Positions 58,603 to 62,891 of a stretch of 64,000 nucleotides of DNA are shown here, piece after piece. Made by a program: the position numbers and the translations under genes. The DNA is taken from positions 98,208,001 to 98,272,000 of the forward strand of contig OZ024743.1 of the NCBI GenBank assembly GCA_964016885.1, read 5' to 3'. Under the pieces are notes generated by a model. The model made no database searches and was not told where the DNA came from. It was given only the letters and a program-made list of their open reading frames with translations. Each line of letters opens with the position of its first letter. Position 1 is the first letter of the stretch. The DNA is from Eledone cirrhosa (lineage: Eukaryota).

Positions 58603-61600
58603 GCGCGGGGACATAGAAATATCGGGCTGGATGCCCGATCGCGCAGTTAAACCACTGGGAGTGAAGAACCCCTAGCCCTTGTCAGGGCATTCTTCTAGGA
58701 GAAGGCATCTCAGGAAACTGGGTTAACTCCGATATAAAACCTGCGGCTCAGTAGTTACCGATGATGTTGATCTTTTCTTCTTTTCGGGTTATAGCTACTG
58801 TCGCTCAGAGAGTGGGATTGGCTCAGTGCACAGTCTTTCCTCACTTTAAAAATATTCGTCACGTACAGGCATTGCACGAGTGCATTAATAATTATTAATA
58901 GTGTACTACTATTATTATTATTATTATTACTATTATTATTACTTTTTTTTTTTTTTTTTTTTCCCAATTCAATGATGTTCCAGAACAATGTAAAAGAGAT
59001 AATTGGCAATTTAGGTTCTGGAACAAAAAAGATCATTGGCAATAAGGGCAGGGGCCCCAAGTTATCACAGCCTGGGCCCGCTCGTCATCGTGCCATTGTA
59101 ATAGAGCCAAACAAGGCATTTAGTCTTGGCTGCTGGAACGTACGGACGCTGCTTGACAGGGATTCCTTGGAGCGTCCTGAAAGAAGGACCGCTCTTGTTG
59201 CAAAGGAGCTTCGACGTTACGATCTTGACATCGTGGCTTTATCTGAGACGAGGTTAGCTGGAGATGGTCATCTTACGGAATTTTGTGGAGAATATACATT
59301 CTTCTGGAAAGGAAGAGATGAAGGAACCAGAAGTGAGGCTGGGGTAGGATTTGCTGTTAAGACTGTACTTGTCAATAAATTAGAAGAATTCCCAGTAGGG
59401 ATTAGTGAGCGTCTTATGTCCATGAGAGTTCCGCTGGACAGAGGAAGATATGCTACCCTGATGAGTGTGTATGCTCCAACTATGAATTCTGTCGATGAAG
59501 AAAAACTGTCCTTTTACCATGACTTGAAAGGTGTTCTAAGAAATATCCCTCAGGCAGACAAAGTCATCGTGCTTGGTGACTTTAATGCTAGAGTGGGTAG
59601 GGATTTTAACACATGGAATGTAATCGGAAGGCATGGGAGGGAAAGTGTAACAGCAATGGTATGCTCCTGCTGCAGATGTGTGAGGAGCTGGATCTGTGTG
59701 TTACCAACACCATGTTCCAACAAAAGAACAAATTCAAGACCACATGGATGCATCCTGCATCTAAGGAATGGCATCTTTTGGACTACGTCCTAGTCAGGAT
59801 GCGTGACAGACAGGATGTGCAGTGTGTTCGTGTTCTTCGTGGAGCTGAGTGCTGGACGGACCACCGCCTGGTACGCGCAAAAGTGAAACTAATCACCAAA
59901 CGTAAAATCCGGGCTCTTGGTGTTACCCTGCCCAAAAGATTGAATGCTGCTCGTCTTAAGGATAAAAATGTGAAGAGGACATTGGAAGAAGAGATGCAGG
60001 CTGCATATCTTGGTGAGGATTGGCCGACCCTTAAAAATTCGGTTTATGATGTAGGCAGGCGTGTTCTGGGATTGGTGCAGAGAAAACATCAGGACTGGTT
60101 TGATGAGAATGATGTACATATAGAAGACTTGTTGGCTGATAAGAGGCGTGCTCTGTCACGCTACTTGACGGCAAAACCACAGGAGAGGAGTACGTTGCAT
60201 GAGGAGCTCAGGGATGTAAAATCACCTGTTAGGCGGAGTCTTTCTCAGATAAAGGATCAGTGGTGGAGTGAGAAGGCTGGTGAGATACAAACTGCGTCTG
60301 ATTCCAATAACACATAGCTGTTGTACAGTCTCTTGCGTGAGGTTTATGGACCGTCTTCTCTGGTGACACCGCTTCGCAGCAAGGATGGCAAAGAACTTCT
60401 TCGTGACTCACAGGGAATTCTACGAAGGTGGCGAGAGCACTTTGATGATCTTTTGAATCAGCCGTCTGTCGTCAGTGAAGATTTTCTCAATCTCATTCCA
60501 GAAAGTCCTGTGAAAGTAGCTCTCGCAGAACCTCCGACGCTTGTGGAGGTTGCAGTGGCTATTTCGAAGCTGAACAGTGAAAGATCTCCAGGTATGGATG
60601 GCATACATGCTGAGCTCCTACAATATGGTGGTGAGAGACTCCTGCAACATCTGCACTCTTTGTTTGGAAGGATATGGGCTAATGAATCCGTACCTGAGGA
60701 CTGGAGAGATGCAGTAATGGTGGGCTTGTACAAGGGAAAGGGTAACAGGAATGATTGTGGGAACTACAGAGGTATATCATTGCTTTCTGTCGTAGGGAAA
60801 GTTTTATGTAGGGTGCTTCTGGACCGTCTGCTGACACACATTGCAGATTGTGTTCTTCCTGAAAGTCAATCTGGTTTTCGTGCTGGACGCGGCACTACTG
60901 ATATGATCTTCTCAGCTAGACAGCTCCAGGAGAAGTGCATTGAACAAGGCTTGGATCTGTATCAGGTTTTTGTCGATCTGACAAACGCTTTCGATACTGT
61001 CAACAGAGAGGCATTATGGAAGGTTCTCCAGAAACTTGGTTGCCCTGATAAGTTCCTTGCTTTAGTTGGGTCTTTCCATGACGACATGAAGGCTTGGGTT
61101 AATGTCGGAGGTAACATGTCGGAGCCTATCTCAGTAAAAAATGGAGTGAAACAGGGGGATATTCCAGCACCGACCCTGTTTGCCATATACTTTGCAATGG
61201 TTTTCTGTATTGCATTCAGGAATTGCGAGCATGGTGTTTACATCCGATATCGAACCTCAGACAGCATATTTAACATCAGGCGCTTTGCTGCGAAGACAAA
61301 AGTATTTAAATCAATCATAAGAGACCTCTTGTATGCAGATGATTGCGATCTTGTAGCGCACACAGAGAGTGATATGCAACACATTTTGAATGCATTTTCT
61401 GACGCTTGCACTGCCCTGGGTTTGACTGTCAGTCTCAAGAAAACCGTCGTCATGTACCAACCTGCCCCTAGTAAGCAGTACACTGAACCAAACATCTATG
61501 TGTATGGCAAACGACTTGGAGTGGTTGATCAGTTTGTCTACCTGGGAAGCACTGTCAATCGATACGGCAACTTTGACAGTGAAATCTCACTTAGGATTAG

Positions 61601-62658
61601 GAAAGCAAGTGATGCTTTCGGAAAGCTAGAAAGGCGACTCTGGGGTCGGCGAGACATATGCAGGAGGACAAAGGTAAAGGTGTACAGGGCATGTGTACTC
61701 TCTTGTCTTCTTTATGCCTGCGAGACCTGGGTCACATATCGACACCACCTTAAGCAATTGGAGGGTTTCCATCAGATGTGTCTTAGACGGATCCATGGCG
61801 TTCACTGGAGGGACCACATCAGTGATGTCGAGATTTTGGAAAGCTCTATGTGTGACAGTATAGAAGCTCTTGTGCTTAAGCAACGACTCCGTTGGAGTGG
61901 TCACCTTGCCAGGATGAAGGATTCTAGAATACCAAAACAACTCTTCTATGGAGAGTTGGTTAAAGGAAAACGACCGCCACATAAACCAAAAAAGAGGTAT
62001 AAGGATTCCTTGAAAGCCTCTCTGAAAGACGCTAACATCTCTGCTGATACATGGGAAAATATTGCTGCTGATCGTAATAAATGGAGAAAGACTGTATATG
62101 AGGGAAAAGTTGCCTTTGAGGCATCTCGAATCGCACACGAGAAAGTAAAGCGGGATGTGAGGAAGGGCATTGCTGTTGCACTTCCAGACGGCGAGGGTCC
62201 TCCTATGGTGCTGACATGCAGCGTCTGTGCGAGACTCTGCCTAAACAAGGCTGGACTCGAAAGTCATCTTCGCAGTCATAAAGTAAGACCAGTGGTTGAC
62301 TACCAGGCTGCTGTTGGAGATGCTACTCATCATGCTTGCCAAACATGTGGTAGAGAATGTAAATCAGCAGGAGGGCTCAAGCGACATGCAAAAGTACACG
62401 AACTCCAACCATAGCCGACTATTCCCAGTGAATGTTTTGGTTGCCGACTCTGTGCAAGACATTGTAGATCATTGGCTGGGCTAAAAAGCCACATTCGATC
62501 GCAGCACTGTTAGTTGTTATCGTGTGTGTGTGTGTTTGTGTAGATATGCTTGTGTGCGTGCGTGTGTGTGTATATATATATGAATATGTATATTATTATT
62601 GTTGTTGTCGTTATTATTATTATTGCTATTATTATTATTATTATTATTATTGTTATTA

Positions 62659-62697
<39 letters not shown>

Positions 62698-62891
62698 TGT
62701 GTGTGTATGTATGTGTGTCTGTATATATGTATATATGTATGTATATATATATATATTTCTTTTTTTTTCTTTCTTTTTTTTTTATTTATTATTATTATTA
62801 TTTATTTATTTTTTTTTTTTATTTATTTATTTTTTTTTTTTTCTTCTCGTGCAATGGCCATACTCGATAACGAGGGGGCAGCCATCATCAT
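58603..62891 (+). mobile_element. Near full-length RTE-clade LINE (APE endonuclease, RT, three C2H2 fingers), disabled
   Basis: Endonuclease motifs GCWNVRTL, ALSETRL, VYAPT, LGDFNARVG, LDYVLV, TDHRLV; RT motifs NYRGISLLS, QSGFR, FVDLTNAFDTV, GVKQG, YADD. The 5' end is shared with 46452; tail hairpin ctcg-ataa-cgag followed by (CAT)n/(TATG)n. Confidence 0.95.
58972..62513 (+). pseudogene. RTE ORF broken by one frameshift (~59640) and two in-frame TAG stops (60315, 62412)
   Basis: ORFs 58972-59793, 59613-60317 and 60321-62414 join into one reading; the frame continues past 62414 as [32 protein letters not shown] to 62513. Confidence 0.9.

Follow-up and report, generated by a model that had tools for sequence, protein, structure and literature searches.

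Why should the short, non-autonomous relatives of RTE-type long interspersed elements (LINEs) carry a piece of both ends of the parent element? The question is raised by a 64,000-nucleotide window of the Eledone cirrhosa genome (positions 98,208,001 to 98,272,000 of contig OZ024743.1, assembly GCA_964016885.1), in which a LINE at 58.6–62.9 kb is accompanied by three bipartite non-autonomous elements. An earlier note on this DNA had pointed out that a sequence in the 5' untranslated region (UTR) of the LINE can pair with one next to its 3' terminal hairpin, and that different sequences at the homologous positions of the other elements do so as well. Our results indicate that this complementarity of a 5' and a 3' arm is very probably a real feature of RTE elements as a clade.

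The LINE has one open reading frame (ORF; 58972..62513, + strand) with an APE endonuclease domain (PF03372), a reverse transcriptase (RT) domain (PF00078) and C-terminal C2H2 zinc-finger motifs, the latter recognised in the translated sequence and by the Pfam tags that homologues carry. There is no gag-like ORF1, and the family ends in a short terminal hairpin followed by a microsatellite tail, as is characteristic of the RTE clade. The description of this copy as full-length holds, but it is broken, with a frameshift near 59.6 kb and in-frame stops at 60315 and 62412. Elsewhere in the genome, which measures 3.0 Gb and contains many copies of the family, 40 of the 41 matches listed for the ORF lack an internal stop, with open frames of 1164–1326 aa. 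Many full-length copies have a further ~380 nt of upstream sequence in common (about 58215–58600 in the window), including microsatellites and a piece resembling a repeat at 46626–46805; the true 5' end of the family is in this stretch, which may be a captured head. Some RTE families have a hepatitis delta virus (HDV)-like ribozyme at the 5' end; at the Rfam gathering score, only one tRNA was matched in 18 loci and the window, and Rfam may lack such ribozyme variants.

The arms of the LINE, at 58870..58880 and 62846..62856 (+ strand), are complementary at all 11 positions by Watson-Crick (WC) pairs. Each strand of the window contains the 11-mer of the 5' arm exactly one time, giving two occurrences in all, and none was seen in 100 shuffles. 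The 3' arm is the first non-repetitive sequence after a microsatellite 3'UTR of about 330 nt and lies, as had been reported, directly before the terminal hairpin (62857..62883, +), with which the element ends and gives way to an (ATC)/(ATGT) microsatellite tail. The other three pairings are equally present: 11 of 11 WC at 63172–63182/63212–63222, 15 bp including 3 G-U at 32860–32874/33031–33045, and 9 of 9 WC at 43399–43407/43573–43581. All three belong to elements where a 5'UTR piece is fused to a 3' end, the ORF is lost and the whole has been amplified as a unit. The earlier note had spoken of three divergent subfamilies. The 32.9 kb element (32470..33072, +), consisting of 5'UTR, the last ORF codons and the 3' end, and the 43.4 kb element (43000..43608, +), which has the weakest helix, represent separate non-autonomous families, with at least 40 genome matches at 98–100% (best 40 of 2944 candidates) and at 89–100% (best 40 of 895 candidates), respectively; no autonomous partner of either was found among the best genome matches listed. 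The 63 kb element (63046..63251, +) is a short derivative that shares its family with the LINE, which is thus its autonomous partner. Its 5' pattern has 2608 exact matches in the genome. Compared with the full-length family, its helix has one extra pair and a compensatory change in which both sides are altered, from G-C to T-A.

In a comparison within the genome, based on 26 copies and one variant, all four pairings were found again in further copies. Every one of the 13 full-length rows of the window family with both ends retains 10–11 paired positions, and five of these carry a one-sided C-to-T change that yields a G-U pair in the helix. Two further autonomous-type RTE families of this genome have arms that differ in sequence yet pair. 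Three rearrangements were noted among the copies in the window. The 63 kb derivative begins with an inverted 5'UTR piece (62985–63049; 92% to 58674–58738, minus strand), reminiscent of a twin-priming 5' inversion. At 33136–33305, on the far side of the (TATG)n tail of the 32.9 kb element, the last 170 nt of that element recur as an inverted copy (99%), tail to tail with the original. Finally, the short-derivative copy at 46451–46880 has another repeat in place of the 5' domain and 5' arm, leaving the 3' arm and hairpin alone.

For a comparison across families, a profile scan with a 33-protein alignment yielded 69 loci in metagenome contigs and 5 in genome contigs; 57 loci, including those from the Eledone cirrhosa genome itself, had sufficient upstream sequence. 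The 5' anchors were provided by two iterated profile hidden Markov models ending at a CAGG-like tetramer, and 27 anchored elements also had the 3' zone. The 3' anchor was set by hand at the base immediately preceding the microsatellite tail, since a 3' hairpin profile proved too weak (14 matches, one misplaced); in L044 and L079, where the contig breaks off within the hairpin, its position was extrapolated. With L077 excluded, as its contig stops at the stop codon, 26 elements were clustered at 70% DNA identity into 20 families with RT identities of 36–72%; the RT tree has no named RTE references among the relatives. The 26 nt after the 5'UTR domain were then paired with the pre-hairpin 3' window, and own pairs were compared with 380 foreign pairs. 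The test was not fully blind, as many element ends had been inspected before the windows were fixed. Five of the contigs recovered with RTE-like elements (L100–L104) are filed as bacterial genomes and probably represent eukaryotic contamination. No relative was found in viral contigs.

Own windows paired at a mean of -18.0 kcal/mol, against -10.4 (standard deviation 4.3) for foreign pairs. Perfect WC helices reaching 8 bp were present in 11 of 20 own but only 10 of 380 foreign pairs, and a length of 9 bp was reached in 7 of 20 and 1 of 380; not one of 200,000 permutations reached either own-pair mean. The own partner ranked first in 13 of the 20 family rows. When the windows were slid to 15 other 5' offsets or 10 other 3' offsets, the own-foreign difference shrank to at most 1.3 kcal/mol and the effect was lost, so that base composition is controlled for. 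When arms were swapped between families, mostly sister pairs in the RT tree, the own arm was better in 11 of 12 pairs. The arm sequences themselves are mostly unrelated across families, with at least 6 letters of the arm 8-mers in common in just 7 of 380 comparisons. Eight further loci, anchored by eye afterwards, ranked 1, 1, 1, 1, 2, 2, 6 and 6 of 21. Complementarity thus extends to other intact RTE families. That the arms vary together while their position stays fixed implies selection for pairing.

The 5' arm sits directly behind a covarying domain of ~60 nt, a point absent from the earlier note, which had placed the arm at the end of the 5'UTR after a conserved ACAGG. A 23-element alignment confirms the conservation of the domain (58808..58869, +), while the ACAGG varies among families. 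The position at the end of the 5'UTR is not general either: in 25 of 27 model-A matches the arm, following the domain, is 280–416 nt upstream of the aligned ORF start, the distance being about 100 nt in the window family and one other. Stem P1 of the domain (58811–58816/58840–58845 in the window) is 93.8% paired in the 23 aligned domains, with 4 of 7 pairs altered on both sides; its covariation score was reached by none of 500 shuffles, a control that relatedness can inflate. The inner stem P2 was not significant (p 0.085). Pairing of the loop with the bases immediately preceding the arm is better within elements than between them (4.30 vs 3.30 WC, p 2e-5), whereas a control segment showed no such effect (p 0.6). 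To judge from these sequence comparisons, an H-type pseudoknot is a likely part of the RTE 5' domain. The version predicted for the window copy (58826–58829 with 58863–58866) has only 3 WC pairs and 1 G-U. The same domain is visible in the named elements AviRTE, RTE-3_AMi and RTE-2_Croc.

A motif of this domain resembles a branch point (CTCAC) followed by a 3' splice acceptor (ACAG/G) in 17 of the 23 alignment members, and short helices are common in 4 kb. It is nevertheless extremely unlikely that the arms reflect chance, or a splice acceptor beside a coincidental inverted repeat: chance is excluded by the permutation and sliding controls, and the CAC letters are part of the covarying stem. 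A 3' splice acceptor was rejected, as the AG is missing in 6 of the 23.

Further features were seen around the domain. An AT-rich palindrome of 16 nt (58884..58899, +) lies 3' of the 5' arm, and a similar stretch forms the loop in the fold of the 63 kb derivative. Many metagenomic RTEs possess a second conserved block of ~250 nt with apparent hairpins between the 5' arm and the ORF (L033:620-860, L034, L036, L038, L039, L041, L042, L076, L079, L087, L096), which is absent from the window family and may be a structure for the initiation of translation. In another LINE family of the genome, which lacks the zinc finger (L185–L192 and window 41982–42467), a Ceph-type 5' block lies inside an apparent stem; the 5' domain is absent there, and no homologous arm pair was recognised, possible pairings being unconvincing.

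The arms can also be followed in named elements, through the consensus stretches printed in supplement S1 of PMC5786205, which were read by eye and yield counts that have no statistical control. Pairing is visible in stretches from BovB, Bov-A2, turtle, crocodilian, platypus, bird and squid elements. BovB has CCCCATGAA in its 5'UTR and TTCATGGGG before the hairpin (9 WC), and Bov-A2 differs from it by a two-sided change (CCCATGGAC/GTCCATGGG). A two-sided swap likewise distinguishes RTE-1_PSi (CTTGACATC/GATGTCAAG, 9 WC) from RTE-3_AMi (CATGACATC/GATGTCATG, 9 WC). Shorter helices occur in RTE-11_AMi (7 bp with 2 G-U), RTE1_LA (7 with 1 G-U) and RTE-4_PPo (6), and complementarity is seen in each of the six autonomous consensus elements for which both ends can be read. 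Together with the 20-family permutation test and the arm swaps, these stretches bear out the covariation that had been proposed for the arms. Among short interspersed elements (SINEs), pairing is clear in MonoRep87A/B (8 and 11 WC), SINE2_Gav (7), IdioSINE2 (7), SINE-1_Pmo (6–7) and WALLSI1 (8 and a mismatch), as well as in ManaSINE1 (7 paired; PMC4844689, Supplementary Data 5); GymnSINE, SINE2-2_ACar and the coelacanth and butterfly SINEs reach 4–6 bp at most. MonoRep87A/B and IdioSINE2, labelled 'unknown 3'' in PMC5786205, possess both arms and an RTE-type hairpin, and since their hairpins resemble those of L034 and the window family, their tails are probably RTE-derived.

At the 3' end, the arm finishes 21–30 nt before the tail, directly before the terminal hairpin, in 14 of 18 families (two failures excluded), and cofolding predicts that the long-range helix and the hairpin are placed end to end. 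A second point absent from the earlier note is that the 3' arm usually adjoins the stop codon: in 13 of the 20 families it begins no more than about 20 nt from it, two of the stop calls being unreliable owing to broken frames. This proximity, together with a 5' arm upstream of the start codon and with RTE copies that end in microsatellites instead of poly(A), is what one would expect if the helix served translation, as a closed-loop enhancer or as a translate-versus-copy switch opened by ribosomes, and 5'-3' kissing interactions of plant viruses do act in translation. We consider this explanation, which is compatible with a role in template choice, to be unlikely, as the nearness to the stop codon is partly due to a short 3'UTR (the window family has 335 nt from stop to arm) and as non-coding SINEs keep both arms with compensatory changes. 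Independently born non-autonomous elements retain arm complementarity, and in the published stretches the 5' domain, both arms and the hairpin are retained by SINEs whose tRNA or 5S head supplies a promoter and which are non-coding. Elements with an RNA polymerase III head of their own and no protein that maintain all these parts, and have compensatory changes of their own, argue for a function in mobilisation rather than in transcription or translation. The function would accordingly lie in a step common to LINE and SINE RNA, either protein binding or the initiation of target-primed reverse transcription (TPRT).

We therefore return to template choice as the preferred explanation, and consider it probable that arms, 5' domain and hairpin constitute a composite cis signal by which the RTE protein picks its template. 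This function is inferred, as is the analogy to viral cyclisation drawn in the earlier note, although the arms do share with cyclisation motifs their fixed positions near both ends, their complementarity and their covariation across lineages. In the process that we envisage, the arms would pair in RTE RNA and so link the 5' domain, with its likely pseudoknot, to the terminal hairpin; the helix would form in sense RNA, stack on the 3' hairpin and need protein to win over local folds. The composite structure may then act in the assembly of the ribonucleoprotein or at the start of TPRT. RNAs of 5'-truncated copies would be poor templates, and a successful parasite would have to retain both ends.

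Several observations weigh against this proposal. The long-range helix is just 5–12 bp. In predicted global folds, the stems of the 63 kb and 32.9 kb derivatives form (p at least 0.92), while the A/U-rich stem at 43.4 kb does not (p about 0), and predicted minimum free energy folds contain the helix in only 2 of 7 full-length elements, the window copy not being among them. When RNAduplex was allowed to place the 5' window anywhere in the element, its best site fell in the 3' zone in only 4 of 27 cases (about 9% expected). L075 shows no arm pairing, L036 has both ends but no recognisable 5' domain, and L049 fails with its automatic anchor, which was misplaced by an insertion, and ranks 6 of 21 when the anchor is set by eye. 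In the supplement stretches, the cephalopod elements Sepia-, Sepioth- and OegopSINE have a different block from the 5'UTR, with no clear pairing by eye. In plants, the Au-like SINEs related to RTE are described as having only the 3' terminal region in common with the LINE (PMC6007223), and the available text on tobacco RTEs reports that their 5'UTRs turn over (10.1101/2022.11.04.512097). As the plant SINEs are reported to share the 3' end alone, the pairing rule may be limited to animal RTEs.

A further point of this kind is that counts of G-U and A-C appositions (7 vs 8 and 5 vs 4) do not distinguish the strand on which pairing occurs. Near-even counts would suit a function, within autonomous elements, in RNA stability or in a late step (completion of the cDNA, the 5' junction or the second strand, possibly at the DNA level), with bipartite forms as a by-product of RT jumping across a looped-out middle. 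In the 63 kb derivative, Bov-A2, SINE-1_Pmo and MonoRep87, the junctions of the deletion are situated a short way inside both arms, which is also in keeping with such jumping. However, the 32.9 and 43.4 kb derivatives keep 150–170 nt between the arms, and derivative masters (63 kb family, Bov-A2, SINE2_Gav) show compensatory changes of their own, which suggests continued selection. We thus regard this explanation, too, as fairly unlikely, while noting that it is compatible with template choice.

The remainder of the window contains other ORFs, named here from their translations alone: presumably a fibrinogen-related domain (14578–15378, minus strand), a restriction-like endonuclease (RLE)-type RT element (30015–32637, minus strand), a GIY-YIG/Penelope fragment (54669–55148, plus strand) and another LINE fragment (25966–26906, plus strand).

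Cyclisation of flavivirus RNA brings a polymerase-binding structure at the 5' end to the 3' end. RTE elements resemble the orthoflaviviruses in their short complementary terminal sequences, for which a conformational switch has been proposed in the viruses (PMC12168079, as far as available). They differ in that the viruses employ an RNA-dependent RNA polymerase and conserved cyclisation sequences, whereas RTE arms turn over, keeping only complementarity and position. In the retroelement Ty1, complementary CYC5 and CYC3 sequences likewise lie at the 5' and 3' ends, beside a 5' pseudoknot, and have been tied to reverse transcription; the accessible text reports that, in vitro, this cyclisation requires Gag and tRNA (PMC7969010). 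By analogy, the RTE platform is likely to be protein-assisted as well. Ty1, however, belongs to the long terminal repeat (LTR) elements and relies on tRNA priming, on strand transfer and on virus-like particles, whereas RTEs have one ORF, no Gag and target-DNA priming.

Among LINEs, those with stringent template recognition share with RTEs a terminal hairpin before a microsatellite tail, but their signal is described as local to the 3' end (PMC6007223, PMC3747384, in the parts available), while the RTE hairpin is flanked by a helix to which the 5'UTR contributes. Kojima 2018 (PMC5786205) and Suh 2016 (PMC4844689) deal with the same elements and the same retained 5'UTR and 3' pieces. The former notes a conserved RTE 5'UTR block, of Ceph type and upstream of the domain found here, and leaves the cause of the bipartite structure open; its main text does not use the terms 'base pair', 'stem' or 'palindrom', and neither 5'-3' pairing nor a pseudoknot is proposed in the parts available. 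In a gene writer derived from RTE-1_MD (PMC13708176), the payload is placed between the cognate 5' and 3' UTRs, which were improved by mutational screening, and the available text states no structural reason for the UTR requirement. No description of 5'-3' pairing or of a pseudoknot in RTEs was found in the literature searched, which covers few subscription papers (not Gogolevsky 2008) and no patents, where the stem may be noted. Within that literature, the RTE helix would represent RNA cyclisation in a class of elements, the non-LTR retrotransposons, for which none was found described, cyclisation being known in Ty1 and in viruses.

Taken as a whole, we give a somewhat better than even chance to the view that animal RTE LINEs, BovB included, choose their template via a discontinuous platform of 5'UTR pseudoknot, long-range helix and 3' hairpin, which would exist only in full-length, looped RNA and would be the cause of bipartite SINEs. 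RTE-mobilised SINEs with a 5'UTR piece and a 3' end arose many times, and a clade-wide helix offers a concrete cause for this. Arm pairing also provides a rule by which orphan SINEs such as MonoRep87 and IdioSINE2 can be matched with RTE partners. If our interpretation is true, the view that stringent LINEs read only the 3' tail would change, and a design rule for the template RNA would be available for gene insertion by RTE-based gene writers.

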